Origin: Phenylobacterium sp.
GTDB lineage: Bacteria > Pseudomonadota > Alphaproteobacteria > Caulobacterales > Caulobacteraceae
Direction: 5' to 3'
NCBI RefSeq assembly: GCF_036677185.1
Contig: NZ_JAKFEN010000027.1
Coordinates: forward strand, 94,044-158,043
Length of the DNA stretch: 64,000 nucleotides
In this document: piece by piece, positions 2,506 through 48,259 of the stretch
How positions within the stretch are numbered: position 1 is the first letter of the stretch
Layout: each line of letters starts with the position of its first letter
Program-made: the position numbers and the translations under genes
The notes under the pieces: model-generated
What the model was told of the DNA's origin: nothing
The model's database searches: none
What the model saw: only the letters and a program-made list of their open reading frames with translations

Positions 2506-2712
2506 GCCAAAACTTTCCTCTCGCGCCCCTCCCGCCGATCTACCTCGCGTCGCAGGCAGATGTCACCCACGCCGGACGCTCAAGGCGCTTTCCTGCACGG
2601 CCGAAACTTGCCCAAATGCTGAGCAGCCGCGCCGCTGAGGTTCGCCGATTCCGAAAAGCCGCCCCAAATCCGGGCGCGCTTCCTAAGGTCGGAGAGGGAC
2701 GCGGAGGACCAG

Positions 2713-4221
2713 GTGGTGGAGTACGGCGTGGCGACGGCCCACAGTTCTGAAGACACGGCGGCGGGGCCGAACGTGGGGCCACAGGCTTCATTGAACGTCC
2801 CGTACGACGAGATGCTGACCTCCCGCGGTCTGGTGCGGCCGCACTACGCGGCCCTCGACGCCCGGATCGCGACCCTGGCGGCGGCCGACATGGCCGAGCG
2901 CCAGCGGGTGCTGGAACGCTACTTCCTGCTGCAGGGCATCACCTTCACCGTCTATGGCGGCGAGAGCTCCACCGAGCGGATCATCCCCACCGACCTGCTG
3001 CCGCGGATCATCCCGGCCGAGGAATGGTCGAAGATCGAGGCCGGCCTCACCCAGCGCCTGAAGGCGCTGAACATGTTCCTGGCCGATATCTATGGCGAGC
3101 AGCAAATCCTGATGGACGGGGTGGTGCCGCGCGAGCTGGTGCTGAGCGCGCCGTCCTATCGCCGGGAGATGCAGAACCTGTTCGTGCCGCACCAGGCCTA
3201 CGCCAATGTCTGCGGCTCGGACCTGATCCGCCAGACCGACGGCGCCTTTGCGGTGTTGGAGGACAATCTGCGGGTGCCGTCCGGGGTCTCGTACATGCTG
3301 GCAAACCGGGAGGCTTCGCGGCGGACCTTCCCGGGCACGTTCCGGGCGGCCAACGTGCGGGCCATCGACCGCTATCCCGACCTGCTGCTGGCGACCCTCA
3401 AGAGCATGGCCGCCGACTGGCGACCCAATCCCCAGGTCGCGGTCCTGACCCCCGGGGTCTACAACTCCGCTTACTACGAGCACGCCTATCTGGCCCGGTT
3501 GATGGGCTGCCCGCTGGTCGAGGGCCGCGATCTCGTGGTCCACGACAACATGGTCTACATGCGGACCACCACCGGCCTGCGTCGGATCGATGTGATCTAT
3601 CGTCGGGTCGACGACGACTTCATCGACCCCCTCACCTTCCGCCGGGACTCAGGCCTCGGCGTCGCGGGCCTGTTCAACGCCTACCGGGCCGGCAATGTGG
3701 TGATCTGCAACGCGCCCGGCACCGGCGTGGCCGACGACAAGGCCGTCTACGCCTATGTCCCGGAGATCATCCGCTACTATCTGGGCGAAGAAGCCATCCT
3801 GCCCAATATCGAGACCTATCTCTGCCGCGAGCCGGCCCAGCTCAGCCACGTCCTGGCCAATCTGGACAAGCTGGTGGTCAAGGCGGTCGGCGCCTCGGGC
3901 GGCTACGGCATGCTGATCGGCCCGCACGCCAGCAAGCAGGAGCGCGCCGACTTCGCCCAGGCGATCAAGGCCGACCCAGACAACTACATCGCCCAGCCGA
4001 CCATCCAGCTCTCCACCGCCCCCTGCCTGGTCGATGGGGCCATCGAACCGCGCCACGTGGACCTTCGGCCCTTCATCCTGTCGGGCGAGAAGATCGTGGT
4101 GACCCCGGGCGCCCTGACCCGCGTGGCCCTGCGCAAGGGCTCCCTGGTGGTCAATTCCAGCCAGGGCGGCGGCTCCAAGGACACCTGGGTGCTCACCGAG
4201 GGCAAGGAGACCCTGCCATGA
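2713..4221 (+). CDS. Circularly permuted type-2 ATP-grasp protein (DUF404/DUF407, COG2308 type)
   Basis: 502-aa ORF. ..YDEMLTSRGLVRPHYAALDARI..LERYFLLQGITFTVYG..ERIIPTDLLPRIIPAEEW..LKALNMFLADIYGEQ.. is the family-typical N-terminus. It is first of the conserved trio with the alpha-E and transglutaminase genes. The true start may be one of several downstream GTG/TTG codons. Confidence 0.85.
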   Translation: MVEYGVATAHSSEDTAAGPNVGPQASLNVPYDEMLTSRGLVRPHYAALDARIATLAAADMAERQRVLERYFLLQGITFTVYGGESSTERIIPTDLLPRIIPAEEWSKIEAGLTQRLKALNMFLADIYGEQQILMDGVVPRELVLSAPSYRREMQNLFVPHQAYANVCGSDLIRQTDGAFAVLEDNLRVPSGVSYMLANREASRRTFPGTFRAANVRAIDRYPDLLLATLKSMAADWRPNPQVAVLTPGVYNSAYYEHAYLARLMGCPLVEGRDLVVHDNMVYMRTTTGLRRIDVIYRRVDDDFIDPLTFRRDSGLGVAGLFNAYRAGNVVICNAPGTGVADDKAVYAYVPEIIRYYLGEEAILPNIETYLCREPAQLSHVLANLDKLVVKAVGASGGYGMLIGPHASKQERADFAQAIKADPDNYIAQPTIQLSTAPCLVDGAIEPRHVDLRPFILSGEKIVVTPGALTRVALRKGSLVVNSSQGGGSKDTWVLTEGKETLP

Positions 4222-4255
4222 TGCTCGCCAATCTTCGTCGCAAAGGATCGCGAGC

Positions 4256-5197
4256 ATGATGCTCGCGAGGGTCGCCGACAGTCTCTACTGGATCGGCCGC
4301 TATGTGGAACGGGCCGAGCATATGTGCCGGCTCTCGGACGTGATGCTGAACGCCACCCTCGACCGGACCGAGGGGGCGGCCCAGGTGGCTCGCATCGCGC
4401 TGGCGGCCGTCGGCGACTCCGACCGCGCCCACCTGACCAATCCCTATGAGGCGACGCTGGCCATGGCGCTGGACCGCGAGGACCAGGGCTCGATCGTCTC
4501 CTCCCTGGCGCTTGCCCGCGAGAACGCCCGCCAGGTGCGAGACCAGATCACCACCGAGACCTGGGAACGGCTCAACCTCATCTACCTGAAGATGACCGGA
4601 CCAGACGCCGCCAAGTCCTTCGCCGACGGATCCTCGGCCTTCCTGCATGACGTGATCGCCGACCTGCACCTGTTCCGCGGCGCGGCCGACGCCACCATGA
4701 GCCACGGCGAGGGCTGGCGGTTCTTGCTGCTGGGCATGTACCTGGAGCGCGCCCAGCTCATCGGCCGGCTGCTGGAGGTCTGTTTCGGCGACCGGCGCCG
4801 GGGCGCCTTCGACGAGCACTTCGCCCTGGTCAGCGTCCTGCGGATGAGCTGCGCGCTGGAGCCCTATCTGCGGCGCTACACCGCCGACATCCAGCCGCGG
4901 AAGGTGTTGGAGTTCCTACTGCTGGACGAGGACTTCCCACGCTCCATCCGCTTCGCCACCGCCCGGATCGAGGAACACACCACCGCGGCCAGCCGCTATG
5001 TGGAAGCCGGCCACGCAGGGCCCGAGCGCCTGGCCGGCCGGCTGAAGGCGCGCCTGCAATATGCCGACATGGACGAGCTGCAGGTGGCCGGGGCCAGCGC
5101 GCTCATCTCCACCGTGCTGGACGAGTGCGTGGCGATCCACCAGTCGATCTACGAGACCTTCGTCCACTATTCCCTTGAAATGCGACTGCCCGCCTGA
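4256..5197 (+). CDS. Alpha-E domain protein (DUF403, COG2307 type)
   Basis: 313-aa ORF beginning MLARVADSLYWIGRYVERAEHMCRL.., the hallmark alpha-E N-terminus. It sits immediately after the ATP-grasp gene. Confidence 0.85.
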   Translation: MMLARVADSLYWIGRYVERAEHMCRLSDVMLNATLDRTEGAAQVARIALAAVGDSDRAHLTNPYEATLAMALDREDQGSIVSSLALARENARQVRDQITTETWERLNLIYLKMTGPDAAKSFADGSSAFLHDVIADLHLFRGAADATMSHGEGWRFLLLGMYLERAQLIGRLLEVCFGDRRRGAFDEHFALVSVLRMSCALEPYLRRYTADIQPRKVLEFLLLDEDFPRSIRFATARIEEHTTAASRYVEAGHAGPERLAGRLKARLQYADMDELQVAGASALISTVLDECVAIHQSIYETFVHYSLEMRLPA

Positions 5198-5208
5198 GGC
5201 GCTGACCG

Positions 5209-6189
5209 ATGCTCTTGGAAGTCCGCCACGTCACCCAGTACCACTACGCCGAGCCGGTGCGCGAAAGCGTCATGGAGCTCTGGATGCAGCCGCAAAAGAG
5301 CGTGCGCCAGCGGCTGGTCAGCTTCGACCTGGACCTGGATCCGGCCGCGCAGCTGTTCTCCTACGCCGATCCGTTCGGCAATGCGGTCTATCACTTCGAC
5401 GTGCCCCAACCGCACGACCGCCTTAACATCGTCGCGCGCTCGGCGGTGGAGACCCAGCCGCCGACCGCCCTGCCCGAGGCGCTGGACATGGGCGAATGGG
5501 ACCGGCTGCGCAGCGACTTCGTCCGCGGAGAGAACTTCGATTTCCTGCGTCATCACGGCTTCGCGGTGGAAACCGAGGGGCTGAAGGCCTTCGTCGCCGA
5601 GCACAAGATCGACGAACTGAAGGCCCTCGACCCCCTGCGCGCCGTGCGCGAGCTGTCGAAGATCATCTACGAGTCGTTCGACTACGAGGCCGGCGTCACC
5701 CATGCCGACAGCCCCATCGACCTGGCCCTGAAGGCTCGCCGGGGGGTCTGCCAGGACTTCAGCCACATCATGCTGGCCATCTGCCGGTCCTGGGGCGTGC
5801 CGGCGCGCTACGTCTCGGGCTATCTGTTCACCGACCGCAAGGCCGGCGACCGCTCCGATCCGGACGCCACCCACGCCTGGGTGGAAATCTTCCTGCCCTC
5901 GACCCGCTGGATCGGCCTGGATCCCACCAACAATGTCGTCGCCGGCGAGCGCCACATCGCCGCCGCCTTGGGCCGCGACTACAACGACGTCCCGCCTTCG
6001 CGCGGAGTCTACAAGGGCGAGGCGGAGAGCCAGCTCGCGGTGGGCGTCTCGGTCCGCCGAGCGCGCGCGGCGATCACCGAGCCGGAGTTCATCCGCGTGG
6101 CCCAGCCTGCCTTCGCCCAAGGCGGCCGCAGGCGCGGACCGGCCGGCGGCCTCGCCTACGACCAGCAGCAGCAACAGCAGCAGCAATAG
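5209..6189 (+). CDS. Transglutaminase-like cysteine peptidase family protein with a C-terminal poly-Gln tail
   Basis: 326-aa ORF. It has a Bact_transglu_N-like start (MLLEVRHVTQYHYAEPV) and a core motif ..RRGVCQDFSHIMLAICRSWGVPARYVSGY..HAWVEIF..GLDPTN.. (Cys-His-Asp). It ends ..AYDQQQQQQQQ. Confidence 0.85.
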   Translation: MLLEVRHVTQYHYAEPVRESVMELWMQPQKSVRQRLVSFDLDLDPAAQLFSYADPFGNAVYHFDVPQPHDRLNIVARSAVETQPPTALPEALDMGEWDRLRSDFVRGENFDFLRHHGFAVETEGLKAFVAEHKIDELKALDPLRAVRELSKIIYESFDYEAGVTHADSPIDLALKARRGVCQDFSHIMLAICRSWGVPARYVSGYLFTDRKAGDRSDPDATHAWVEIFLPSTRWIGLDPTNNVVAGERHIAAALGRDYNDVPPSRGVYKGEAESQLAVGVSVRRARAAITEPEFIRVAQPAFAQGGRRRGPAGGLAYDQQQQQQQQ

Positions 6190-6381: not shown

Positions 6382-7416
6382 CTACGCGCTGAAGATGTAC
6401 GACCGTTGCGCGGCGAGCCCAAAGCGGACGCCGGATTGGAACCGGCCGGCGAGTTCGCGCGAGAAGGCCGCCTCGATCCGCTGACCGCCGGGGGTCAGGC
6501 CGTCCACGCGCACCACCGGACCGCTAGGCGCCACGCGCTCGGTGATCAGGAACAGCTGCTCCTGGCCGGCCGGGGCCAGGGTGAACTCGTGAGGACGCAC
6601 GAAGGCCACCGCGGCGCCGTCGGCCACGCCCTGGGCCGGCAACTCAATCTCCGCGGCGCGGAATCGGCCGCCCTTCACCGCCCCCTCGAACCGGTTGACC
6701 TCGCCGACGAAGCCACAGACGAAGGCGCCAGCGGGCTGGTCGTGGACCTCGTGTGGCATGCCGACCTGCTCGATGGCGCCATTGTTGAGGATCGCCACCC
6801 GGTCGGCCAGCTCCAGGGCTTCCTCCTGGTCATGGGTGACGAAGATGGTGGTGACGCCGGTGGCGTCATGGATGCGGCGCAGCTCCTTGCGCAGCGACTT
6901 GCGCACCGTGGCGTCCAGGGCGCCGAACGGCTCGTCCAGCAGTAGGACGCTGGGATTGACCGCCAGGGCGCGGGCGAGCGCTACGCGCTGGCGCTGGCCG
7001 CCGGAGAGCTGGGCCGGATAGCGCTTGCCCAGGTCGCCCAGTTCCACGAGCTCCAGCAGTTCGCCGACGCGGGCGGCGATCTCGCTCTTGGAGGGCTTGT
7101 CCGCGCCCCTGCGCACCTCCAGGCCGAAGGCGACGTTGCGGGCCACGGTCATGTGACGGAAGAGGGCGTACTGCTGGAACACGAAGCCCACCCGCCGCGC
7201 CGCGGCGCTGGCATAGGTCATGTCCTGCTCGCCATAGAGCACCTGACCCTTCTCGGGGAACTCCAGGCCGGCGATGACCCGCAGCAGGGTGGTCTTGCCC
7301 GAGCCCGACGGGCCGAGCAGGGCGAGCAGTTCGCCGTCGGCGATCTCCAGGCTCACCCCGTTCAGCGCCGGATAGCGCCCGAAGGTCTTCTCCACCGATC
7401 GGATGGAAATGGTCAT
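6382..7416 (-). CDS. cysA: Sulfate/thiosulfate ABC transporter ATP-binding protein
   Basis: 344 aa with Walker A GPSGSGKTT, signature LSGGQRQRVALARAL and Walker B LLLDEPFGALD. The CysA-type C-terminal regulatory domain is present. It is last in the cysT-cysW-cysA order. Confidence 0.9.
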   Translation of the reverse strand: MTISIRSVEKTFGRYPALNGVSLEIADGELLALLGPSGSGKTTLLRVIAGLEFPEKGQVLYGEQDMTYASAAARRVGFVFQQYALFRHMTVARNVAFGLEVRRGADKPSKSEIAARVGELLELVELGDLGKRYPAQLSGGQRQRVALARALAVNPSVLLLDEPFGALDATVRKSLRKELRRIHDATGVTTIFVTHDQEEALELADRVAILNNGAIEQVGMPHEVHDQPAGAFVCGFVGEVNRFEGAVKGGRFRAAEIELPAQGVADGAAVAFVRPHEFTLAPAGQEQLFLITERVAPSGPVVRVDGLTPGGQRIEAAFSRELAGRFQSGVRFGLAAQRSYIFSA

Positions 7417-7432
7417 GCGGCGGGTCTCACGA

Positions 7433-8278
7433 TCAATGACGGCCGGGCCGCGACTGCGGCTGGATGAGTTCGAGACCGGCCTTCAGCACCAGGGTGACGA
7501 TGGCCAGGAAGCACAACAGGGCGGCGACGGCGAAGGCGCCGACGAAATCGTACTCGTTGTAGAGTATCTCCACATGCAGCGGCATGGTGTTGGTCAGGCC
7601 GCGGATGTGGCCCGAGACCACCGAGACAGCGCCGAACTCCCCCATCGCCCGGGCGTTGCACAGCAGGACGCCGTAGAGCAGCCCCCAGCGGATATTGGGC
7701 GCGGTCACGCTCCAGAAGGTGCGCAGGCCCGAGGCCCCCATGGAGACCGCGGCCTCCTCCTCGTCGGCCCCCTGCTCCTGCATCAGCGGGATCAGCTCGC
7801 GGGCGATGAAGGGGAAGGTGACGAAGATGGTCGCCAGCACGATGCCCGGAATGGCGAAGATCACCTTGATGTCGTGCTCGATCAGCCAGGGCCCGAACCA
7901 GCCCTGGGCCCCGAACACCAGCACATAGATCAGTCCCGCCACCACCGGCGACACCGAGAACGGCAGGTCGATCAAGGTGATCAGGAAGGGCTTGAAGGGG
8001 AAATTGTGCTTGGCGATCGCCCAGGCGGCGCAGACGCCGAACACGGCGTTGAACGGCACGGTGATCGCCGCGGTGATCAGGGTCAGCTTGATCGCGGCGC
8101 GGGCGTCCTCCTGCCCGATCGCTTCCAGCGCCGGTCCCAGGCCCTTGCGCAGGGCCTCGAAGAACACCGTGACCATCGGCAAAATCAGGACGCTGACCAG
8201 GAACACCGCCACCAGGGCCAGGACGAGCGCCTTGGCCCAGGCGGGATCCTCGGTGGGGTGGCGCGGGCGGCGGCTCAT
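7433..8278 (-). CDS. cysW: Sulfate ABC transporter permease CysW
   Basis: The ORF-track entry 7433..8512 is over-extended. The ATG at 8278 ([23 protein letters not shown]..) overlaps the cysT stop as ATGA. It is a multi-TM permease with an EAA-like loop ([21 protein letters not shown]). Confidence 0.88.
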
Positions 8279-37872: not shown

Positions 37873-38388
37873 GTGACCCTCATCGTATGCGGATTGGCCG
37901 AGCTCCCGGGGATCATCGCCGCGCGCCACCCCTCGCACCTGGTCACCCTGCTCGACCCCGCCAGCATGATCGAGACCCCGGCGGGCTTCGCCGACCGGCA
38001 CCTGAAGCTGGGGGTCAACGACATCGCCGAGCCGATGGAGGGCATGGTCCTGCCGCACGCGGGCCTTGTGGCCGACCTGCTGGCCTTCGGCAGAACCTGG
38101 GACGAGAGCGCGCCGATGATCGTCCACTGCTGGGCCGGGATCAGCCGCTCCAGCGCCAGCGCCTTCGTCCTGGCCTGCGAGCGCAATCCCGACGTCTCGG
38201 AAAAGGCCATCGCGCTCGCCATGCGCAAGGCCGCCCGCCACGCCTATCCCAACCGCCGCATCGTGGCGCTGGCCGACGACATGCTGTCGCGCAAGGGCCG
38301 GATGGTCGACGCGGTGGAGGCCATGGGCGACTACGAATATTCCGGGATCGGCCAGCCGTTCGACTTCCCGGTCCGCTACCCGTGGTAG
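37873..38388 (+). CDS. Cys-based protein-tyrosine/dual-specificity phosphatase-like protein (COG5350 type)
   Basis: The GTG at 37873 gives VTLIVCGLAELPGII.. The active-site P-loop is HCWAGISRS (HCX5R[ST]). The ORF-track start at 37804 would overlap the HD gene. Confidence 0.7.
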   Translation: MTLIVCGLAELPGIIAARHPSHLVTLLDPASMIETPAGFADRHLKLGVNDIAEPMEGMVLPHAGLVADLLAFGRTWDESAPMIVHCWAGISRSSASAFVLACERNPDVSEKAIALAMRKAARHAYPNRRIVALADDMLSRKGRMVDAVEAMGDYEYSGIGQPFDFPVRYPW

Positions 38389-39347
38389 TCATCGGGCTCT
38401 CGGCGGTGGTGGTGGCCATCCAGGACGGCGACGCCGTGGTCCTGACCGTGCGCCCGCCCGGCCAGCTGCCCGGCCTGCCCTTCGGTCCCTTCGATCCCAA
38501 CGGCCATCGGACCTTCGAACTGGCCCTGCGCGCCTTCGTGACCGCCCAGACCCGGTTCGACCTGGGCTATGTGGAGCAGCTCTACACCTTCGGCGACCGG
38601 GGCCGCGACGCGCCCCTCGCCGACATGGGCCCCAGAAATGGGGGCGACGGCGCCCAGACCGGGGCGGCGCGGGTGCTGTCGGTGGGCTATCTGGCGCTCA
38701 CCCCCAAGGCGGTGGACACCGCCGCGCCCGACACCGCCTGGGCCAGCTGGGCGCGGTTCTTTCCCTATGAGGACTGGCGCGACGGCCGCCCCGACGCGCT
38801 CGGCGCCATCGAGCCGGCCCTGCGCCAGTGGGCGCACGGCGCCACGGAACGGCTCTCCCGCGCGCGGCTGCTGTTCGCGCTGGACGGCGCGCCCTGGAAC
38901 GAGGAGCGGGTGCTGGAGCGCTACGAGTTGCTCTATGAGGCGGGCCTTGCGCCCGAGGCCGCCCGCGACCGCGGCGAGGCCGCGGCCCTACCCGCCCCCG
39001 ACCTGGCCGCGGCGCTGGGTGAACCGATGATCAGCGACCACCGTCGCATCCTGGCCACCGCCCTGTCGCGCCTAAGGGGCAAGCTGAAATACCGCCCGGT
39101 GGCGTTCGAGCTGATGCCCGAGGCCTTCACGCTGTCGGCCCTGCAGCGGGCCGTCGAGGCCGTGGCCGGGGTTCCGCTGCACAAGCAGAACTTCCGCCGC
39201 GCCCTGGAGCGCGCCGACCTGGTGGAGGGCCTGGGCCGCGTCGATTCCGACACCGGCGGCCGGCCGGCCGAGCTGTTCCGCTTCCGCCGCGAGATCCTCG
39301 GCGCCCGGCCGGTGTCGGGCTTGAGCCTGCCCCTGCTGCGGGAGTAG
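38382..39347 (+). CDS. NrtR-like regulator: degenerate Nudix domain plus C-terminal winged-helix domain
   Basis: Only the 3' two-thirds of ORF 37887..39347 is real. The GTG at 38382 overlaps the PTP stop. The N-terminal Nudix-fold region lacks the REUxEE catalytic box (..GLPFGPFDPNGHRTFELALRAFVTAQT..). The C-terminal ..LMPEAFTLSALQRAVEAVAGVPLHKQNFRRAL.. matches the NrtR winged-helix signature as I remember it. Confidence 0.65.
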   Translation: MVVIGLSAVVVAIQDGDAVVLTVRPPGQLPGLPFGPFDPNGHRTFELALRAFVTAQTRFDLGYVEQLYTFGDRGRDAPLADMGPRNGGDGAQTGAARVLSVGYLALTPKAVDTAAPDTAWASWARFFPYEDWRDGRPDALGAIEPALRQWAHGATERLSRARLLFALDGAPWNEERVLERYELLYEAGLAPEAARDRGEAAALPAPDLAAALGEPMISDHRRILATALSRLRGKLKYRPVAFELMPEAFTLSALQRAVEAVAGVPLHKQNFRRALERADLVEGLGRVDSDTGGRPAELFRFRREILGARPVSGLSLPLLRE

Positions 39348-39387
39348 GCGCTGGGGTCCTTGGAGCATGTGGAGCCGATCTTGGCGC

Positions 39388-39563
39388 CCTTCTCCCCCTG
39401 CGGGAGAAGGTGGCCGTTCGGAGAACGGTCGGATGAGGGGTCTCTCAGAACTCGCCGGTTAGCCTCGGCGCGCTCTTCAACTCAGCTGGCAGACCGATAG
39501 GGCTTTCGACCCCTCATCCGACCCCGCTCTCGCGGGGCCACCTTCTCCCGCAAGGGGAGAAGG
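39388..39563. repeat. Nested palindromic intergenic element (REP/MITE-like), copy A
   Basis: The left arm is CCTTCTCCCCCTGCGGGAGAAGGTGGCC..TCGGATGAGGGGT (39388-39441). The right arm ACCCCTCATCCGA..GGCCACCTTCTCCCGCAAGGGGAGAAGG (39509-39563) is its near-perfect reverse complement. Each arm contains its own 8-bp hairpin. The element fills the gap between two convergent genes. Confidence 0.75.
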
Positions 39564-39564
39564 A

Positions 39565-40173
39565 TCATGAGGCCCTAGCCGCGGCGACCAGGGCGCGGAT
39601 GGCCCAGCGGGTGACCTTGCGCGACTGGCGGTCGTCGAGGCGCAGGACGTCCTTGAACACCACCATGGCCTCCGTGCCGATGATCAGCGCCAGGGCCGGG
39701 CCGAGCAGCTCCAGGGCCTTGGGGTCGAATTCGCCGCGCGCGGGCGCCAGGGCGGCCTCGATCAGCGGGGTGCGGCGGTTCTGGCGGGCGGGCAGGTCCG
39801 GGGCGGCGTCGCCCTTGAGGCCGGCCTGCAGGGTGTTGGCCAGCATCATCCGCAGCGGCGCCTCGTTGGCCGCCATCATCTCGTGCATGGCGGCCTCGAC
39901 GCGGTCGAGCCGCGCCACCGGGTCGGCGGGCGGGCCGTCGGCGAACAGTTCGGCGGGCGTCGGCAGGGCCACGTGCAGGGCGGCCTCCAACAGCAGCGCC
40001 TCGACGCTGGGGAAATAGCGGTAGGCGGTGGCGCGCGAGACCAGGGCCTCCTCGGCGATCTCCTCCAGGCCCGCCTTGCGGCCCTGTTTCATCAGCCGGG
40101 CGGCGGCGTCCAGCAGGTCCTTGCGGGTGCGCTGCTTCTGGTTCGGGCGGCCCGGCTTTTCGGCGAGGCTCAT
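39565..40173 (-). CDS. TetR-family transcriptional regulator
   Basis: The ATG at 40173 gives MSLAEKPGRPNQKQRTRKDLLDAAARLMKQGRKAGLEEIAEEALVSRATAYRYFPSVEALL.., a TetR HTH. The ORF-track start at 40371 is over-extended. Confidence 0.85.
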   Translation of the reverse strand: MSLAEKPGRPNQKQRTRKDLLDAAARLMKQGRKAGLEEIAEEALVSRATAYRYFPSVEALLLEAALHVALPTPAELFADGPPADPVARLDRVEAAMHEMMAANEAPLRMMLANTLQAGLKGDAAPDLPARQNRRTPLIEAALAPARGEFDPKALELLGPALALIIGTEAMVVFKDVLRLDDRQSRKVTRWAIRALVAAARAS

Positions 40174-40174
40174 C

Positions 40175-40597
40175 TCAGTCCTGCGGCAGCTGGCGCATGA
40201 TGGCCGCCAGGTCGAGCCAGACGTTCTCGCGGCTGATGTCGCCGTCCGGCGCGAACTCGACCACATGCAGCAACCTGAACTCCAGCGGACGGTCGCGACC
40301 CTCCAGGCCGAAGGGCATACCGGTCGCCCTGCCCCGCCAGAAGGAATCGTCGACCATGAAGCCGTCGCCATAGAGCCGCTTCCGGGTCTCGATCCTGCCG
40401 TCGGCCAGATCGCCGAACAGGATCTCGTAGAACGGCCGCGCGCCTTCCCGCCCGTGGGTCGGCCCGGTGGGCCAGCCGACGATGTCGTGCTCGACGTCGT
40501 GGGTGAGGGTCGCCAGCACGCCCTCCACGTCGTCGCGGGCCTCGAACCCGAAATGCTCGTCCATCTTGGCGTCCATCTGCTCGCGGGTCAGCGCCAC
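40175..40597 (-). CDS. SnoaL-like / NTF2-fold (ester cyclase-like) protein
   Basis: 140 aa: ..MDEHFGFEARDDVEGVLATLTHDVEHDIVG...GPTHGREGARPFYE.LF......ETRKRLYGDGFMVDDS... It is co-oriented with the TetR gene, 2 nt upstream of it. Confidence 0.6.
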   Translation of the reverse strand: MALTREQMDAKMDEHFGFEARDDVEGVLATLTHDVEHDIVGWPTGPTHGREGARPFYEILFGDLADGRIETRKRLYGDGFMVDDSFWRGRATGMPFGLEGRDRPLEFRLLHVVEFAPDGDISRENVWLDLAAIMRQLPQD

Positions 40598-40638
40598 GGT
40601 CGTCCCTCCCAGTGAATGATTTGATACCGAGTGCTCTT

Positions 40639-40658
40639 AATGAGATTTTGATCTCATT
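40639..40658. promoter_or_regulatory. Perfect inverted repeat, candidate TetR operator
   Basis: AATGAGAT-tttg-ATCTCATT lies in the divergent intergenic region between the SnoaL-TetR operon and the GST gene. Confidence 0.45.
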
Positions 40659-40777
40659 GCAAGACCCACATATCGCCGGCCTGTCACTGTCCGGGTGATT
40701 TCCATTTGCTTGCGCGGCGACGAGATGCCGAACTGGCGAGCAGCCGAGGCCGCCTTCGCCTCAAGCCAGGAGATCCC

Positions 40778-41425
40778 ATGACCATCCAGCTCACCGCGTT
40801 CCGCTGGGTTCCGCCGTTCGCACAGGGCTATGTCCGCGACCTGCGGATTCGCTGGGCGCTGGAGGAGGCTGGCCTGCCCTATGAGGTGGTGCTGGTCGAC
40901 GGCGAGGCCCTGGCCTCGGATCACCATCGCCAATGGCAGCCCTTCGGCCAGGTTCCCGCCTATCGCGACGGCGAGGTGGAGATGTTCGAGTCCGGCGCCA
41001 TCGTGCTGCATATCGCCGCCAAGTCGGAGGCGCTTTCGCCGCGCGACCCGGCCGGGGCGGCGCGGGTCGCCACCTGGGTGCTGGCGGCGCTGAACTCCAT
41101 CGAGCCCCACGCCCAGAACCTGATCGAACTCGACGACTCCGGCGAGGCCTGGGCCGCGGAACGCCGGCCTCAGGTCCGGGCCAAGCTCGACCGGCGGCTG
41201 GAGGGGCTCAGCGTCTGGCTTGGGGAGAAGGATTATCTGGAGGGCGACGCCTTCACGGCGGGAGACCTGATGATGACGGCGGTGCTGCGCGAGCTAGTGG
41301 ACAGCGGGACGCTGAAGCGGTTTCCCAAGCTCGACGCCTACCGGGTCAGGTGCGAGGCGCGGCCGGCCTTCGCGCGGGCCATGGAGGGGCAGATGGCGGC
41401 GTTCCGGGCGAACGCGCCGGGGTGA
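40778..41425 (+). CDS. Glutathione S-transferase (paralogue 1)
   Basis: The ATG at 40778 gives MTIQLTAFRWVPPFAQGYVRDLRIRWALEEAGLPYEVVLV..FGQVPAYRDGEVEMFESGAIVLHIA.. It has a C-terminal GST helix domain. It is similar to the GST at 56002..56652. Confidence 0.85.
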   Translation: MTIQLTAFRWVPPFAQGYVRDLRIRWALEEAGLPYEVVLVDGEALASDHHRQWQPFGQVPAYRDGEVEMFESGAIVLHIAAKSEALSPRDPAGAARVATWVLAALNSIEPHAQNLIELDDSGEAWAAERRPQVRAKLDRRLEGLSVWLGEKDYLEGDAFTAGDLMMTAVLRELVDSGTLKRFPKLDAYRVRCEARPAFARAMEGQMAAFRANAPG

Positions 41426-41649
41426 GGTGGGGGCGGTTAATTAGTATAGTGTCCCCGAAATTTCCGCCTTCAGCTGGCCTGAGATCAGCGATGTATAATC
41501 CACCTTACGCCCCTAGATGCCGCTTCAATGGTTCACTGTAATATCAGTTCACCTGAAACGTAAAATTCAGCACACCTTGACTAAGAGCTTCTGATCCCGC
41601 GACGAATTTCAGCGGTTTCGATATCTCGATACCACTGCCAGGACGCTTT

Positions 41650-42444
41650 CTAGAAGATAGCGCGTCGCTTTCGTGGCGGGCTAGTGATCAGTTTCTCACT
41701 CCAACCCGGCACCAGTTGCTCCATCGTCCGATAAACCATTCGCGCATCTTGAATCGACTGGATTATTTCTTCCTCTGTAACCTCCTCACCATGGATGGCG
41801 CGGCTCGCTACGCGATAGAAGCGCCGGAAAAAGCGCTCGGCGTCTATTGGCACGGGCACCTTATGCATCGGCATGCGCGAGGCCACGGGATCTACTTCCA
41901 TCAGTTCAGCTCGAAACCTCGCCTCCAGGTCTCGACGTAGCCGAGCAAGCGCGTTCCAGCTTTCACCAGTCCGCGCGCTGTCAATCGCGGTCACTATCTG
42001 AGGCGGATCATCTGGATCGTGCTGCCAATAGGAAGTGAGATGCTGCGCCAGTCCCGCGACAGGGGCTTCCACCTCAGGGGCCACCCGATCTCGCCCCGGC
42101 TCTGGGGTTGCCGCTTCAGCCGGTGGAGCAGCCACATAGTCAGTCAGACGAGCGAGATACCTATCCAACCGGGCCCGCAGCTTCACGTCGCGAAGATATA
42201 TGGCCAGTGGCACCTCGCCGAATTCGTCACGAAGGTATCCGGAGAGCTTGCTCAGATCGTCACTGGCAATTGCACTGTTGAAGGCCTCCTCAGCGGCCAA
42301 TTTCTGCGCCTGGCGAGACAGAAGCCTTGCGCGAACCGCCGTGAAAACTAGCGGAACAAGCGCTCCGATTGCTACCGGCAGGGCGCTACCTGCAAGCCAC
42401 CCAATGCCACGCGCCGTTGCTTCCAAAAGGTCGGGGACGCTCAC
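41650..42444 (-). CDS. Hypothetical membrane-anchored protein with a HEPN-like (Rx6H, DUF4145-like) C-terminal domain
   Basis: 264 aa with an N-terminal TM helix (IGWLAGSALPVAIGALVPLVFTAV), a P/A/E linker and a helical C-terminus. The C-terminus contains FFRRFYRVASRAIHGEEVTEEEIIQSI (R211..H218, nt 41791-41814). The region is lower in GC with A/T-ending codons. The start overlaps the upstream stop (ATGA). The CDS is likely real; the domain call is inference. Confidence 0.5.
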   Translation of the reverse strand: MSVPDLLEATARGIGWLAGSALPVAIGALVPLVFTAVRARLLSRQAQKLAAEEAFNSAIASDDLSKLSGYLRDEFGEVPLAIYLRDVKLRARLDRYLARLTDYVAAPPAEAATPEPGRDRVAPEVEAPVAGLAQHLTSYWQHDPDDPPQIVTAIDSARTGESWNALARLRRDLEARFRAELMEVDPVASRMPMHKVPVPIDAERFFRRFYRVASRAIHGEEVTEEEIIQSIQDARMVYRTMEQLVPGWSEKLITSPPRKRRAIF

Positions 42445-42884
42445 TCCGATGTCGCCCGGTCATCCGCTGCGCGCTTCAGAAATGGGCGGATTTCAACCAT
42501 CTTAGCGACTAGGGCCAGCGTGAGGACGAAGCGGCGTTCAATCTGAGATGCGAGGATCAGAGACCCCGCACCCACGACGAGCAACACACCCGCGATCCCG
42601 AGCGAAGCAACGGTCCAGAAGCCCATGTCTGCCAGGGGAAATGCCGACGCACTTTTAGCTACCTGTTGGCTCGCGTCTGCCTGGCGCAAGATGCCGGTAG
42701 CCACGGCGGCGAGAAGCGCAGTCGCACCAGCTAGCGACCACTTACCCACTTCTAGAGCCCTGGCATGCTCCCATTCATAGCTCTTCTCCACGGCCTTATG
42801 CGGATCAACCGCATCGTTAGCGACGAGCCGGAATAGATCGGCGATCCTTGTTGACGCTGCCATCGATTGCACCCCCGTCTTCAA
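42441..42884 (-). CDS. Hypothetical two-TM membrane protein
   Basis: 147 aa from a TTG at 42884, or 140 aa from the ATG at 42863. Two hydrophobic helices are present (WSLAGATALLAAVATGIL; FWTVASLGIAGVLLVVGAGSLIL). It lies in the lower-GC operon with 41650..42444. Confidence 0.5.
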   Translation of the reverse strand: MKTGVQSMAASTRIADLFRLVANDAVDPHKAVEKSYEWEHARALEVGKWSLAGATALLAAVATGILRQADASQQVAKSASAFPLADMGFWTVASLGIAGVLLVVGAGSLILASQIERRFVLTLALVAKMVEIRPFLKRAADDRATSE

Positions 42885-43000
42885 ACCTGCGCCAAACTCA
42901 GGGTTGTTTCAATATTGGAACCTACCCAGCGTGTAGACGGGCAGCGGTCCAAGGAGACTTCGACTGCAGTTGGATTTGCGGAAGACGACATTTGCGCCTC

Positions 43001-43264
43001 CTACCGAGGACGGCGCCTGCCGCGCGCGATCACGGTGTCGGCGTCGAGCGGCTGGTAGCTGTCGTCAGGGGCGGCGAAGGCGTGCTGCAGTTCGGCCTTC
43101 AGGCGCTGGAGGGTCTCGCCCTCGGCGCGCTCCATGTCCCGCCGGATCAGGTCGCGGACATATTCGCTGACATTCTCGTAGACGCCGTCGTCGCCGACAT
43201 TGGCCGCCACGAATTCGCCGAGCACGCCGCTGACCCGCACATTGAGCGTCATCGTCCTGGACAT
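43001..43264 (-). CDS. parD: ParD/COG3609-type ribbon-helix-helix antitoxin-like protein (no cognate ParE)
   Basis: The ATG at 43264 has a GGAGG RBS. The protein MSRTMTLNVRVSGVLGEFVAANVGDDGVYENVSEYVRDLIRRDMERAEGE..LKAELQ.. shows the RHH beta-strand plus the Y-x-S/N-x-SE-[YV]-[VI]-R-D-L-[IL]-R pattern of ParD-family antitoxins. Confidence 0.75.
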   Translation of the reverse strand: MSRTMTLNVRVSGVLGEFVAANVGDDGVYENVSEYVRDLIRRDMERAEGETLQRLKAELQHAFAAPDDSYQPLDADTVIARGRRRPR

Positions 43265-43367
43265 GGGGCCTCCGTTCACGATGTCCACATGATCAGGGAT
43301 ATTGTGGACACATCAAGCGCCGGCCTCCCCTTTCAAAGTAGGGCTATCGCCCATGCGAGAGACTGAA

Positions 43368-43511
43368 GATGCTCCCCCTCTGGGGGAGCTGGCCCGAAGG
43401 GCCTGAGGGGGACTTTGACTCCTGCTCAGACCCATCGAATCGCTGCGGAAGACCATCAAAGTCCCCCTCACCCGGCCATTCGGCCGGGAGCTCCCCCAGG
43501 AGGGGAGCATC
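43368..43511. repeat. Nested palindromic intergenic element (REP/MITE-like), copy B
   Basis: The left arm is GATGCTCCCCCTCTGGGGGAGCTGGCCCGAAGGGCCTGAGGGGGACTTTGA (43368-43418). The right arm TCAAAGTCCCCCTCACCCGGCCATTCGGCCGGGAGCTCCCCCAGGAGGGGAGCATC (43456-43511) is its imperfect reverse complement. It has the same modular layout as copy A. Confidence 0.75.
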
Positions 43512-43531
43512 TGATCACCGTGTTGTTCCGA

Positions 43532-43560
43532 CCATCGGGCGATAGCGCCTCGCCCGATGG
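43532..43560. other. Perfect 11-bp stem hairpin followed by a T-rich tract
   Basis: CCATCGGGCGA-tagcgcc-TCGCCCGATGG is followed by cattTGTTCCCTTTTTGTTCTTT. It looks like an intrinsic terminator on the + strand. No + strand gene lies upstream of it, and the T-tract coincides with the LexA-type box. Confidence 0.5.
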
Positions 43561-43565
43561 CATTT

Positions 43566-43580
43566 GTTCCCTTTTTGTTC
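43566..43580. promoter_or_regulatory. LexA (SOS) box GTTC-N7-GTTC abutting a promoter-like -35/-10 pair
   Basis: GTTCcctttttGTTC is immediately followed by TTTACA (43581-86), a 16-nt spacer and CATACT (43603-08). It lies 63 nt upstream of the ATG at 43643. Confidence 0.5.
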
Positions 43581-43642
43581 TTTACATTTCGCCGTTATTC
43601 GGCATACTCCAGGGTCGCCCTCGGCCTTTCACGGAGTCGCCC

Positions 43643-44314
43643 ATGACCGCCCTGCCCGCTCGTATCTGCGGTTATACGCCTGAGCTGGGGGCGGAGATCG
43701 TGCGGCGGGTGGGGGTTGGTGAGAGCATCCGCTCCATCGGGCGCGATCCGGCCATGCCGGCGGCGGCGACCATCCATAAGTGGCTGAGCGAGAACCCCGA
43801 CTTCGCCGAACAGCGGCGGGAGGCGCGTAGCGCGGCGCGGCGGGCGGCGGCCAGCGCCCATTTGGAGTTGATCGAGGCGCGCAAGGCGCGGCGCAAGCAC
43901 GACTGGGGGCGCCGCGACCTCTATGCCGTGGAGATCGGCGAGGCGATCTGCCGGCGGATCGCGGCCGGCGAGAGCATGGTCGATATCTGCGCGGGGCCCG
44001 ACATGCCGGTGACGGGCACGGTCTATGAGTGGCTGCGGGTGCATCCCGACTTCAGCGACATGTATGTGCTGGCGCGCGGCGTGCAGGCCGAGCTGCTGGC
44101 CGACGAGGCCTGGTCCATCGCCAAGGCCGCGGCGCCCACGACCGTGCCGGTGGCGCGGCTGCAGTTCGACGTGATCCGCTGGCGGGCCGCGCGGCTGGCG
44201 CCCAAGGTCTGGGGCGAGGGCGACAAGGCGTCCGGGCCGACCAAGATCAACGTGTTCGTGCAGAATTTCGGGGATGGCGAGGTGATCAGCGGGCCCGGGG
44301 TTGGGGAGCGGTAG
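43643..44314 (+). CDS. Phage terminase small-subunit-like protein with a duplicated N-terminal HTH module (isolated, prophage-remnant-like)
   Basis: The ATG at 43643 gives MTALPARICGYTPELGAEIVRRVGVGESIRSIGRDPAMPAAATIHKWLSENPDFAEQRREAR.. A second copy follows: ..YAVEIGEAICRRIAAGESMVDICAGPDMPVTGTVYEWLRVHPDFSDMYVLAR..ARLQFDVIRWRAARLAPKVWGE.. This is the pattern I remember from alphaproteobacterial phage small terminase / DNA-packaging proteins. No other phage genes are nearby. Confidence 0.65.
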   Translation: MTALPARICGYTPELGAEIVRRVGVGESIRSIGRDPAMPAAATIHKWLSENPDFAEQRREARSAARRAAASAHLELIEARKARRKHDWGRRDLYAVEIGEAICRRIAAGESMVDICAGPDMPVTGTVYEWLRVHPDFSDMYVLARGVQAELLADEAWSIAKAAAPTTVPVARLQFDVIRWRAARLAPKVWGEGDKASGPTKINVFVQNFGDGEVISGPGVGER

Positions 44315-44332
44315 GGTGGCTCATCCACTCGT

Positions 44333-44440
44333 GTCATCCCGGTTTGCGAAGCAAGACCGGGATGACAGGCGTTGGGGGATGACAGGCGTTGGGGTGATGG
44401 GCGTTGGGGGGTGACAGGCGTTGGGGATGATGGGCGTTGA
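44333..44440. repeat. 11-bp-stem hairpin followed by about 5 tandem copies of a 16-17-nt unit
   Basis: The hairpin is GTCATCCCGGT..ACCGGGATGAC (44333-44366). Then come GATGACAGGCGTTGGGG x2 (44361-44394) and degenerate copies TGATGGGCGTTGGGGG, GTGACAGGCGTTGGGG and ATGATGGGCGTTGA, ending at 44440. Confidence 0.8.
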
Positions 44441-44454
44441 TCAGCCCGCGCCCC

Positions 44455-45368
<914 letters not shown>

Positions 45369-45369
<1 letters not shown>

Positions 45370-45761
45370 CAGGCGGCCTCGCGCGGGGTCGGGGGCCAGC
45401 GGTCCAGGGCGATGCGGGCCATGGGCGCGGCGACGTCGGAGAGGTCGATCTTGACCACCCCGTCGCGGAACGAGGACGACACCGCCTGGGCCCAGGGGAC
45501 GTGGCGAGCCACATAGGCGTCGCCCAACTCGAACAGCACCAGGGCCGAGGCGCCGGAGCGAGCCACCGCGCCGCGGCCGTCCGTAGCCACCCAGATGCGC
45601 TCCAGGGGCTTGCCGGGGAACTCCTGCGCCAGCAGGCGGCGCGCGCGGGCGTCGTCGAGCGGGGTGAGCGGCTTGGCGATCTTGGCCCAGGCGGCCAGGG
45701 CCACCAGGGCCATGACCGCGGCGGCCGAGCCGGCCAGTTGAATCAGAAAGGCCTTGTCCAA
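45369..45761 (-). CDS. Hypothetical membrane-anchored protein
   Basis: 130 aa with an N-terminal TM helix (LIQLAGSAAAVMALVALAAWA). Its stop overlaps the desaturase start by 1 nt. Confidence 0.5.
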
Positions 45762-45810
45762 TTTGGCGTCACTCCCCTGCCCCGCAGGGTCGGCCGTAGG
45801 GGGCGGAGCG

Positions 45811-47085
45811 TCAAGGCGCCGGAAAGTCGCTGAGCTTCGGCACCCTGGAGAAGGCCAGCAGGCCCGCCACGATCAGCAGCATCAGGGCGCCGGGGAAGAT
45901 CACCGCGGCGTGGGGGCCGATGGCCTGGGCCAGGAAGCCGTCGGCCACCGCCCCCAGCGGCCCGCCGCCCATCAGGCCCAGGGTGAAGATCGACAGCACC
46001 CGGGCGCGGACCGCCTCCGGGGCGTGCTGCTGGACGAAGCTGCGGCCGAGCGTCATGGCCACCCCGCCGCCCAGGCCCCAGGCGAAGTTCAGCCCGCAGA
46101 GCAGCCAGAAGGGCATGTGGAAGCCGCAGAGGATCAGGATGACGCCCCCTGCCCCCAGCGCCGTGAGATAGATCAGGCCCTTGCGGCGCAGGGGGCCGAT
46201 GCGCACCAGGGCGAGCGCCGAGACCATGCTGCCGATCCAGAAGCACATGCTGAACAGGCCGAGCGCCGCGGCGATCTCGGTCTTGCCGGGACTGAGGACC
46301 TGGCCGTCGAAATAGCTCTCCACGATCAGCGGCAGCAGGACGAAGAAGCTGCCCATGAAGCAGACGCCCATGGCCACGCCGCACAGCATGACCGGGGCGA
46401 TGACCGGCGAGGCCAGGACCGCGGCGAAGCCCTCGCGGATGTCGCGGCCGATACCGATCAGCAGGCCGCCCTCGCGGCGCGGGCGCACATGGGCCGGGCG
46501 CGGGCGGATGCGCAGGGCCGCGAGCGTCGCCACGGCCATGAGCCCCGCCTGGCCCAGCAGCAGGGGTCCGACCCCCACCAGCGGGGCGGCGGCGGCGCAG
46601 GCCATGCCCAGGATCTGGCCGCCGAACTGGGCGAGCGAGGCGTAGGCCACCGCGCCCTGGATCCCGCCCTTGGCCGGGGCCACCAGGCTGAGCAGGCTGT
46701 CGCGGGCCGGGGTGGCGAAGGCCTGGGCGGTCCCCACGGTCAGGGCGTAGGTGATGATCAGGCCGTAGGTCAGCACGCCCAGGCTCACCGTTGCGCCGAG
46801 GCTCGCGAAGGTCAGCACCGCGAAGGCGCAGGCGGCCACGACGATGGACCTGACCGGGACCCGGTCGGCCAGCGCCCCGCCCAGCAGGATGAACAGGGTG
46901 GTGGGCAGCTGCAGCGCCATCTGGGCCAGGCCGAAGCGGACCTCGCTCTCCTGCAGCACCACCCGCACCAGATAGGGGAACAGCACCACCTGCACCCCGA
47001 AGGCCAGGAACCAGGCCGCGTGGGCGAACAGATAGGGCGCGAACCCCGTGGGCGTCTCGCCCGACGGGCTGGATTGCGATGTCAC
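45811..47085 (-). CDS. MFS transporter
   Basis: 424 aa with about 12 hydrophobic segments. An MFS loop motif, GGALADRVPVR, lies between TM2 and TM3. Confidence 0.85.
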   Translation of the reverse strand: MTSQSSPSGETPTGFAPYLFAHAAWFLAFGVQVVLFPYLVRVVLQESEVRFGLAQMALQLPTTLFILLGGALADRVPVRSIVVAACAFAVLTFASLGATVSLGVLTYGLIITYALTVGTAQAFATPARDSLLSLVAPAKGGIQGAVAYASLAQFGGQILGMACAAAAPLVGVGPLLLGQAGLMAVATLAALRIRPRPAHVRPRREGGLLIGIGRDIREGFAAVLASPVIAPVMLCGVAMGVCFMGSFFVLLPLIVESYFDGQVLSPGKTEIAAALGLFSMCFWIGSMVSALALVRIGPLRRKGLIYLTALGAGGVILILCGFHMPFWLLCGLNFAWGLGGGVAMTLGRSFVQQHAPEAVRARVLSIFTLGLMGGGPLGAVADGFLAQAIGPHAAVIFPGALMLLIVAGLLAFSRVPKLSDFPAP

Positions 47086-47151
47086 GAAGGCCTCCCCTTG
47101 CGGGCCAGCGTCTAGGAGCTAGATGGAAAGCGCAAGCTAGCGGGGTTCGAC

Positions 47152-47640
47152 ATGCGCAGGGCCGCCTCCAAGACCGGCAAGGCCTCGGCCGTCCAGGCGG
47201 CGGGCGCCTGCGTCTGCGGCGCGGTGGCGCTGGAGATAGACGTCCCCGCCCGCTGGGCCTGGCACGACCATTCCCCCGCCAGCCGCCATGCCCAGGGGGC
47301 CGCCTATGCGACCTATGTGGGCAGCTACCGCAGCCGGTTCCGGATCCTGAAGGGCGCGGCGAGCATCAGCCGGTTCGAGGACGCCAAGGCCGGGACCGCG
47401 CGGAGCTTCTGCGCCAGGTGCGGGACGCCGCTGTTCTACGAACGCGCCCGCTCGCCGACCATGGTCAACATCCCCCGCGCCCTCTTCGCCACCCGCACCG
47501 GGCGCGAGCCGCGCTACCACATGTCGCTGCAGGAAAAGGCCGACTGGACCTATGCCGGCGAGCCCCTGGCGCCGCTGAAGGGCTATCCCGGCGTGATGTG
47601 GGCTCGGCCCCGGCGCAAGAAGCCCGGAGAGGGTCTCTGA
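47152..47640 (+). CDS. GFA (glutathione-dependent formaldehyde-activating/CENP-V-like) family protein
   Basis: 162 aa with the Zn-Cys pattern CVCG...and...FCARCGTPLF typical of GFA domains. Confidence 0.7.
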   Translation: MRRAASKTGKASAVQAAGACVCGAVALEIDVPARWAWHDHSPASRHAQGAAYATYVGSYRSRFRILKGAASISRFEDAKAGTARSFCARCGTPLFYERARSPTMVNIPRALFATRTGREPRYHMSLQEKADWTYAGEPLAPLKGYPGVMWARPRRKKPGEGL

Positions 47641-47806
47641 GACCAAGTTGGCGGCGCCGTCGCCCCTCAATTCCTAATGCATCATAATGATATTGCATCA
47701 GTTGTTGCCAAGTGTCTGACACGGGCGTCAGGTATCGACTGGACGACGGTCAGCAAGATAGGGCTCGGGGGAGTTCCACCGTCTTGTCCCGATAGCGAGA
47801 AGCGTC

Positions 47807-48259
47807 ATGAAGACTATCATTCGCGCCGCAACGCTTGCCGCAACCATCGCTTGCGGTTGCGTCGGTATTGCCCAGGCTCAGACGGCCGAACGCGTTTACG
47901 CTCAAGGTACGGTCTGGTCGGTCGGCTATATCGAGACCAAACCCGGCATGTTCGACGACTACATGGCCTATCTGAACGGCCCCTGGAAGGCGATCCAGGA
48001 AGCCGCCAAGAAGCGCGGCGACGTCATCAGCTACAAGATCCTCAGCGTGAACGACGTGCGCGACAATGAACCGGATCTGGTCCTGATGGTCGAGTACAAG
48101 AACATGGCCGTCTTCGATCAGTCGGACGAGGAACTGGACAAGCAGACCTCGGCGGCCTTCGGCTCGCCGGTGAAGGCCAACCAGGCCGCGGTGTCGCGCG
48201 AGAGCCTGCGGACCACCCGGGGCGGCTTCCTCAGCCGCGAGCTGAAGTTCATCAAGTAG
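47807..48259 (+). CDS. Hypothetical secreted protein
   Basis: 150 aa with the signal peptide MKTIIRAATLAATIACGCVGIAQA. GC is somewhat lower than in the neighbours. I recognise no family. Confidence 0.5.
   Translation: MKTIIRAATLAATIACGCVGIAQAQTAERVYAQGTVWSVGYIETKPGMFDDYMAYLNGPWKAIQEAAKKRGDVISYKILSVNDVRDNEPDLVLMVEYKNMAVFDQSDEELDKQTSAAFGSPVKANQAAVSRESLRTTRGGFLSRELKFIK

Follow-up and report, generated by a model that had tools for sequence, protein, structure and literature searches.

Gene content and boundaries of the inserted DNA

The window analysed here is a stretch of 64,000 nucleotides from Phenylobacterium sp. (contig NZ_JAKFEN010000027.1, positions 94,044 to 158,043). Between a GST gene, which ends at 41425, and a terminase-like gene there are four co-oriented open reading frames (ORFs) on the minus strand; the initial annotation had described all four and its coordinates agree with the ORF list. 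Read in the direction of their own strand they are a gene for an 87 aa ribbon-helix-helix (RHH) protein of the ParD type (43001 to 43264), a 36-codon ORF (42881 to 42991), a gene for a 140 aa protein with two transmembrane (TM) helices (42441 to 42863; gene A) and a gene for a 264 aa membrane-anchored protein (41650 to 42444; gene B). This report is concerned with gene A and gene B, which form a conserved pair on inserted DNA and which may constitute a defence module of the abortive-infection type.

The GC content, measured in 400-nt windows, is 0.52-0.62 between 41400 and 43000 and about 0.70 on either side. The initial annotation had called this a low-GC islet in the mid 50s that included the RHH gene. 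The drop is real, but the mean of the islet is 0.579, i.e. in the high 50s, against 0.678 for the window as a whole, and the RHH gene itself has a GC content of 0.678. Codon-position analysis separates the genes further. The GC content at third codon positions (GC3) is 0.89-0.96 in the native neighbouring genes and 0.89 in the RHH gene, in comparison with 0.64 in gene A and 0.60 in gene B. Because its GC3 matches that of the native genes, the RHH gene lies outside the low-GC tract by composition.

The limits of the inserted DNA were found by comparison with two close relatives, L007 and L040, which were identified through their relatives of the GST gene at the flank. The flanks in L040 are 90-96% identical to the window at the DNA level. 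In blastn, homology between L040 and the window stops at 41467 and restarts at 43008, within the final codons of the RHH gene; homology with L007 ends at 41460. With the composition, these breakpoints place the true islet at approximately 41468 to 43007, some 1.5 kb, and within it there are only gene A, gene B and the 36-codon ORF. The junction alignment and blastn show that the stretch immediately after the GST stop codon (41426 to 41467) is a conserved flank, common to all three genomes as far as the breakpoint.

The two relatives differ from the window, and from each other, in what they carry at this site. L007 is a Phenylobacterium metagenome-assembled genome (MAG) with the TetR-SnoaL-GST genes, the terminase-like gene, a desaturase and an MFS transporter (82-96% protein identity), and it is without the RHH gene, gene A and gene B; the gap is filled by a DUF2188 gene (6779-7105) and a GST fragment. 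In L040 the order is the end of the GST gene, a gene for a 482 aa protein, a gene for a 405 aa protein, the RHH gene (91% identical) and the terminase-like gene. This alternative cargo (L040 128-2915) consists of candidate defence genes, as judged from PADLOC phage-defence-candidate (PDC) families: the 482 aa protein is PDDEXK_9-like and matches PDC-M36A (E 1e-11), and the convergently encoded 405 aa protein matches PDC-S11 (E 1e-5). In this comparison, of a kind proposed with the initial annotation, the GST and terminase-like genes flank the site in both relatives and the fillings between them differ. Because three related genomes hold three different fillings, we regard the site as variable.

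Taken together, the two breaks in homology, the lack of the genes in L007, the presence of other genes in their place in L040 and the deviating GC3 of gene A and gene B show that the pair is of foreign origin. The foreign tract suspected in the initial annotation is thus supported by windowed GC, by GC3 and by synteny. As also noted there, no integrase or transposase is present in the islet. A search for direct repeats or att-like sites flanking the insert found none, no tRNA genes were found near the islet and an Rfam scan of 38000-48000 gave no match.

Three observations on the compared sequences are recorded here. The first 42 bp or so past the GST stop codon include TTAA(T/G)TATAG(T/C)G(T/C)CCC, are conserved in the three genomes up to the breakpoint and might act as a terminator or in recombination. 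In L007, positions 7264-7433 are about 72% identical to a GST-internal part of the window (41089-41251) and precede the truncated terminase-like gene, which looks like a rearrangement scar. The L040 sequence (1-5750) is labelled as a Devosia MAG, yet its DNA shares 90-96% identity with the window and with the Phenylobacterium MAG, and it is probably mis-binned.

A conserved pair of membrane-protein genes

Gene A begins at ATG 42863, since all homologues start there with a conserved M-A-x-S-T-R. The initial annotation had given a 147 aa product from a TTG at 42884, which the TGA of the 36-codon ORF overlaps. Those letters are as described, but the apparent coupling is an artefact that arises when the longest ORF is chosen; the description as a 2-TM protein stands. 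In the predicted protein the N-terminal helix is cytoplasmic and bears a conserved E-W-x-H-x-R...K-W motif; a TM hairpin comes next, and the C-terminal helix is basic (IRPFLKR) and likewise cytoplasmic. The AlphaFold2 (AF2) model is a helical hairpin with a pLDDT of 66.

Gene B starts at GTG 42444, a start that is backed by the M-S-(L/V) N-termini of its homologues. It is joined to the gene A stop codon by a GTGA overlap, read directly from the sequence, where ATGA had been reported. The protein has an N-terminal TM helix with an N-out/C-in orientation, followed by a juxtamembrane region that is helical and conserved. A linker of variable sequence, acidic or rich in proline, connects this region to a helical domain at the C-terminus. 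The TM helix (approximately aa 13-37, 42334 to 42408) was located by hydropathy across the family and is found in 92% of family members. The mean number of lysine and arginine residues, family-wide, is 0.26 before this helix and 4.0 after it, and for this reason the C-terminal part is placed in the cytoplasm. In the window protein the linker is rich in proline, alanine and glutamate and appears to be disordered (AF2 pLDDT below 50 at residues 100-137), and the C-terminal domain (aa 141-250, 41695 to 42024) is helical with a pLDDT above 90. The AF2 model therefore bears out the layout proposed in the initial annotation.

Conservation in gene B was assessed over 129 diverse members, the consensus of which reads GExWNALARLRRxIE ... 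LRYAIxVANRAIHGxDVS. W163, R170 and G219 are invariant, H218 is kept in 128 members, E174 in 127, N/S214 in 125 and R171 in 118. The initial annotation had proposed a membrane-tethered HEPN/DUF4145-type domain. This holds at the family level only, as the window protein alone has no Pfam match at E<=1. DUF4145 is matched by 32/129 members (best E 6e-6) and HepT-like by 13/129, and the consensus C-terminal domain reaches HepT-like with an E of 0.015, DUF4145 with 0.024 (profile positions 14-86 of 88) and HEPN with 0.099. When the gene B family was aligned with a profile of genuine DUF4145 proteins using hhalign, the whole domain was matched over 95 columns (E 1e-3), pairing R171/E174 with R116/E120 and N214/H218 with N163/H167, all of them conserved in the DUF4145 profile. 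With moderate confidence, the C-terminal domain of gene B is probably a divergent and degenerate HEPN/DUF4145-like domain.

Whether such a domain would cut RNA is another matter. The DUF4145 RNase RAZR has R146/H154 as its catalytic pair, with the arginine eight residues before the histidine (H-8) (PMC13017515). In the gene B family this position is hydrophobic (I/V/L/Y) in 126/127 members and an arginine in 1/127, so that RNase activity may have been lost. The initial annotation had seen a resemblance to the R-x4-6-H catalytic motif in the window protein, and the peptide that it gave, FFRRFYRVASRAIHGEEVTEEE, is indeed exact, R211 and H218 included. However, the R-x6-H arrangement is specific to the clade of the window: an arginine at H-7 occurs in 21/129 members (16%), and arginine or lysine is commoner at H-3 (99/129) and H-11 (80/129). 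Because the H-8 position is hydrophobic and the H-7 arginine belongs to a minority, the classical HEPN RNase site is not a feature of the family. A catalytic HEPN RNase role for gene B is doubtful, although RNA cleavage by the R-x6-H clade is possible.

Word-indexed searches had returned only seven relatives of the 264 aa protein and nine of the 2-TM protein. An exhaustive profile search gave a gene B family of 325 clusters (50% identity) at E<=1e-3, of which 263 are retained at E<=1e-10. Nearly all members are 220-260 aa in length and match end to end. Some carry C-terminal TPR (including TPR-S), HEAT or DUF3606 modules; the extended members are P0047, P0075, P0106, P0039 and a gene in locus L057 (861-2756), and those with TPR are about 630 aa long.

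We recovered 26 loci of the family from assemblies and metagenomes. In all 22 that have upstream sequence, a gene A homologue (110-156 aa) directly precedes the gene B homologue, so the co-occurrence in other genomes, which the initial annotation had proposed to look for, was found. The end of gene A lies within a few nucleotides of the start of gene B, and the stop and start codons usually overlap. The TPR-fused variant in L057 also follows a 2-TM gene. There is no recurrent third gene across the loci; the nearest case is an Mrr-like gene in two of them, at different positions. In the Bradyrhizobium loci the neighbour upstream of the pair is on the opposite strand. Judged by these comparisons, the conserved unit is the pair of gene A and gene B and it is self-contained.

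A decaying piece of foreign DNA, with ORFs no longer under selection here, might be expected to show some of what is seen at this locus: the site is prone to rearrangement and a sigma-70-like promoter is not detectable. Both genes are nevertheless full length and align end to end with their homologues at 58-75% identity, all the family-invariant residues are kept and the 4-nt overlap is preserved, and we consider decay to be extremely unlikely.

The orphan parD gene and the flanking DNA

The RHH gene has a GGAGG four nucleotides ahead of its ATG at 43264, as the initial annotation had reported. Its product matches TIGR02606 (ParD) with an E of 3.4e-7 and a score of 30 bits, which is below the curated cut-off of 46 bits. 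Its identity to annotated ParD antitoxins of plasmids is 65-73%, and its alignment with ParD chains of solved structure in the PDB spans the entire protein (7ycs, E 0.04, residues 2-85). In the plasmid homologues a parE/relE gene of about 104 aa begins 1-4 nt past the antitoxin stop codon in 3/3 loci inspected, and the breakpoint between the window and its sister genome falls exactly at the expected start of parE. A search for a parE remnant, using tblastn with three ParE proteins against the window, L040 and L007, found nothing (best E 0.25). The locus is thus like a parDE type II toxin-antitoxin (TA) system in its antitoxin but differs in having no parE gene or remnant, and the DNA past the parD stop codon differs between the sister genomes. 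On sequence grounds the RHH gene is a true ParD homologue without a ParE partner, which upholds the initial annotation in this respect. It appears to be a native-looking remnant of a parDE pair, a conserved flank outside the islet, and at most it provides read-through transcription here.

The initial annotation had gone further and made this gene the head and regulator of a four-gene operon, in which the place of the ParE toxin is taken by membrane proteins and the HEPN domain cuts RNA by means of R211 and H218. The arrangement of the genes is in keeping with such an operon: the four ORFs are co-oriented and close-set, no minus-strand terminator is predicted between parD and gene A, and read-through from a parD promoter is physically plausible. 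The TAG stop codon of parD merges into TAGGAGG-N5-ATG, a strong ribosome-binding site (correctly reported in the initial annotation) that opens the 36-codon ORF, and the clade of the window does have R-x6-H. However, parD is not within the inserted DNA and its GC3 is native, the 91% identical parD of L040 abuts an unrelated gene that is convergently oriented, and none of the other loci examined has an RHH gene upstream of the pair. Because parD is outside the insertion, is kept with other cargo in L040 and is absent upstream of the pair elsewhere, it is not the head of the module in the evolutionary sense and, by descent, would not be the regulator of the gene pair.

The second gene of the proposed operon fares no better. 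The four nearest loci (L001, L002, L041 and L042) were searched for a conserved leader ORF ahead of the 2-TM gene, and none was found. In composition the 36-codon ORF does not look coding (GC1, 0.46; GC2, 0.59; GC3, 0.51) and has no coding periodicity, with GC1 lower than GC2, and Pfam, NCBIfam and PADLOC scans gave no family matches. It is probably not a gene. With this ORF unconserved and R211 restricted to 16% of the family, we think the ParD-headed operon very unlikely.

Just upstream of the parD ribosome-binding site there is an inverted repeat, TGTCCACA-N13-TGTGGACA, with 8-bp arms (43282 to 43310, minus strand). It was read directly from the sequence and may be a ParD autoregulatory operator.

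Further upstream, between parD and the terminase-like gene, there is a nested palindromic element (43367-43512). Its outer arms are 24 nt long, 92% complementary and 98 nt apart, and its inner arms are 15 nt long and perfect (43404-43418 and 43456-43470). It is kept in L040, where the window copy also aligns in the reversed orientation (74%), as a palindrome would, and it is absent from L007. The terminase-like gene (43415-44314, plus strand) encodes two Sf6-type small-terminase-like domains (E 1.8e-46) and stands alone, without further phage genes in the vicinity. Its ORF overlaps the palindrome over roughly the first 76 codons and the real start is probably an ATG near 43643, upstream of which there are a terminator-like hairpin (43532-43560) and a promoter-like site (43581-43608). 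In L007 this gene is N-terminally truncated.

Genomic neighbourhoods and possible function

The surroundings of the pair elsewhere are rich in defence and mobile genes, in keeping with the resemblance to TA-derived or abortive-infection defence modules noted in the initial annotation. In L003 the neighbours are a HEPN protein, HipAB, an N6-methyltransferase, AAA_13 and conjugation genes. There is an AAA_13 protein that matches PDC-S06 (E 2e-302) in L052, a match to PDC-S60 (E 2e-58) in L005, and an IS66 transposase in L050. L047 and L051 have Mrr-type nucleases that match PDC-S02 or type IV restriction. In L058 the neighbours are a zinc-ribbon DUF4145 protein that matches PD-T7-4/RAZR (E 1e-6) and an AbiU2 HEPN protein. 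With the L040 cargo, these loci make the neighbourhoods defence-rich. In L045, L050, L052, L056 and L058 the GC content of the pair is below that of the flanking DNA.

Two of these neighbourhoods have further features. In L058 (5087-10273) about 5 kb around the pair has a GC content of 0.40-0.51 against 0.61-0.64 in the flanks and contains several small genes, including the RAZR/PD-T7-4-like and AbiU2-type ones. In L003 (6295-7887, minus strand) and on a JGI contig (3550-5139, minus strand), two loci of the same subclade, a gene transcribed divergently from the pair encodes a protein of about 530 aa that has no Pfam or PADLOC match.

Several known systems resemble the pair in part. The DUF4145-type HEPN proteins (PF13643, clan CL0291; RAZR/PD-T7-4) have the same domain length and helix order as gene B, and some gene B members reach DUF4145 individually. 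The residues aligned with R116/E120 belong to an R-x3-E in the early helix and those aligned with N163/H167 to an N-x3-H that closes the third helix, and DUF4145 domains occur in defence contexts. The differences are that the gene B protein has no Pfam match alone, has I/V/L/Y in place of the H-8 arginine, has no zinc ribbon, is membrane-anchored and is always paired with a 2-TM protein.

Anantharaman et al. (2013; PMC3710099) described a membrane-associated HEPN family that overlaps DUF4145 and is defined by a WP signature, strictly conserved, within its TM domain. Its architecture is like that of gene B: a single TM helix at the N-terminus precedes a HEPN domain of the DUF4145-like type, which is cytoplasmic and is proposed to act on RNA at the inner membrane face. 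Unlike that family, gene B has no WP signature and none of the first 40 columns in the alignment of 129 members is conserved, and an obligatory 2-TM partner gene is not described in the passages of that paper that were examined. With its TM region unconserved, gene B does not fit the WP-signature definition of that family.

A HEPN-TM defence system of phage-inducible chromosomal islands (PICIs) is named in a review (PMC12948488). By description only, it is like the present pair in consisting of genes for a HEPN protein and a transmembrane protein, in being carried on mobile DNA and in acting in phage defence; it differs, again by description, in that the HEPN-like protein here is itself membrane-anchored. 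The PICI system is said to go back to Fillol-Salom and co-workers in 2022 and we take it to be the FS_HEPN_TM system of DefenseFinder. The islet has no integrase or packaging context and no PICI features that would indicate carriage by a phage satellite.

Finally, gene A has weak but recurrent profile matches to SLATT effectors and to the TM proteins associated with defence reverse transcriptases (DRT). These share two TM helices and cytoplasmic helical extensions with gene A, and the PADLOC RTasTM profile is matched by 5/6 of the 2-TM proteins scanned. The E-values are only 0.015-0.06, however, and there is no SMODS, SLOG, nucleotide cyclase or reverse transcriptase among the neighbours in any locus. 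The matches give a weak hint that gene A might be a SLATT-like effector. Membership of PDC-M16 was considered for gene B and rejected: the PDC-M16A match covers positions 29-112 of 930 only, a shared DUF4145-like segment, and the window protein has no match. PADLOC v2 has no system that corresponds to the pair, which, as far as sequence comparison goes, is a conserved, widespread and uncharacterised candidate module, one among many such.

We favour, at about an even chance, the reading that gene A and gene B are a horizontally acquired, self-contained membrane module of abortive-infection or defence type, inserted between the GST gene and the orphan parD. In such a module the two proteins would form a complex in the inner membrane, with gene B translationally coupled to gene A by the 4-nt overlap. 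The HEPN-like domain would be a cytoplasmic sensor or regulator that binds RNA or protein, to which some relatives add TPR or HEAT. On a trigger, for example phage infection, the 2-TM partner would permeabilize the membrane; less likely, the HEPN-like domain would itself cut RNA. By either route the growth of the infected cell would stop. We prefer to assign the role of sensor or regulator to the HEPN-like domain and that of effector to the 2-TM protein, because the canonical arginine is missing and some members have TPR or HEAT extensions. A more specific version, which we put forward only tentatively, is a stand-alone and hitherto undescribed membrane-embedded immune module in which a catalytically degenerate, tethered HEPN/DUF4145 sensor gates a SLATT-like 2-TM pore, is TPR- or HEAT-extended in some lineages and uses no nucleotide second messenger.

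A number of results weigh against a defence module of this kind, the hydrophobic H-8 position among them. Neither window protein has a match in Pfam, NCBIfam or PADLOC. SLATT_1 is matched by 6/20 gene A family members, weakly (best E 0.017), and the hhalign alignment of gene B with DUF4145 has a probability of only 22%. Foldseek gave no match at E<0.2 for both AF2 models against the PDB or for the 264 aa model against BFVD, although small all-helical domains are poorly resolved by this method; for gene B against the PDB nothing was found at E<1 and the best bundle-like matches had target-normalized TM-scores of 0.46-0.47. A profile search of PDB sequences gave chance matches only. The gene B family was not found in 72,556 plasmids, in 50,697 phage genomes or in IMG/VR (tblastn of the 264 aa protein against the plasmids, the family consensus against the plasmids and phage genomes, and an IMG/VR scan), which is unusual for a widespread defence system. 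The PDC families in the neighbourhoods are candidate defence genes only, the Bradyrhizobium pair follows an extracellular contractile injection system (eCIS) cluster rather than classical defence genes (L001 and L002, with the cluster upstream of the pair), and the evidence for a hotspot comes from three genomes.

Small 2-TM proteins are common toxins, and the pair could instead be a selfish, TA-like addiction module without an immune role, in which the 2-TM protein depolarizes the membrane, the HEPN-like protein neutralizes it and loss of the pair kills the cell. The tight translational coupling and strict co-occurrence would suit such a module, as would the patchy, horizontally transferred distribution and the TA genes that adjoin the pair (HipAB in L003 and parD in the window). 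However, addiction modules are common on plasmids, where the family was not found, and the sensor-type C-terminal fusions to TPR or HEAT suggest ligand sensing. TA and defence roles can also coexist. We regard addiction alone as unlikely.

A non-defence accessory function at the membrane, such as the sensing of envelope stress or other signals with the tethered HEPN-like domain modulating RNA there, would agree with the position of the Bradyrhizobium copies beside the eCIS cluster. It would also agree with the stimulus-dependent RNA processing that Anantharaman et al. (2013; PMC3710099) proposed for TM-fused HEPN proteins. The pair is, however, absent from the closest relative of the window and replaced by other cargo in another, its composition is foreign and its neighbours are mostly defence or mobile genes. 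This makes an accessory function quite unlikely.

If gene A and gene B are a working defence or abortive-infection module, they would extend the HEPN repertoire by a compact membrane system of two proteins, with a HEPN domain that is without the canonical catalytic arginine and that may sense rather than cut. The locus also illustrates how an orphan antitoxin gene can precede unrelated cargo and resemble its regulator. The site between the GST gene and the orphan parD is a small variable site in Phenylobacterium-like genomes at which candidate defence cargos are exchanged, and it could be mined for further systems.

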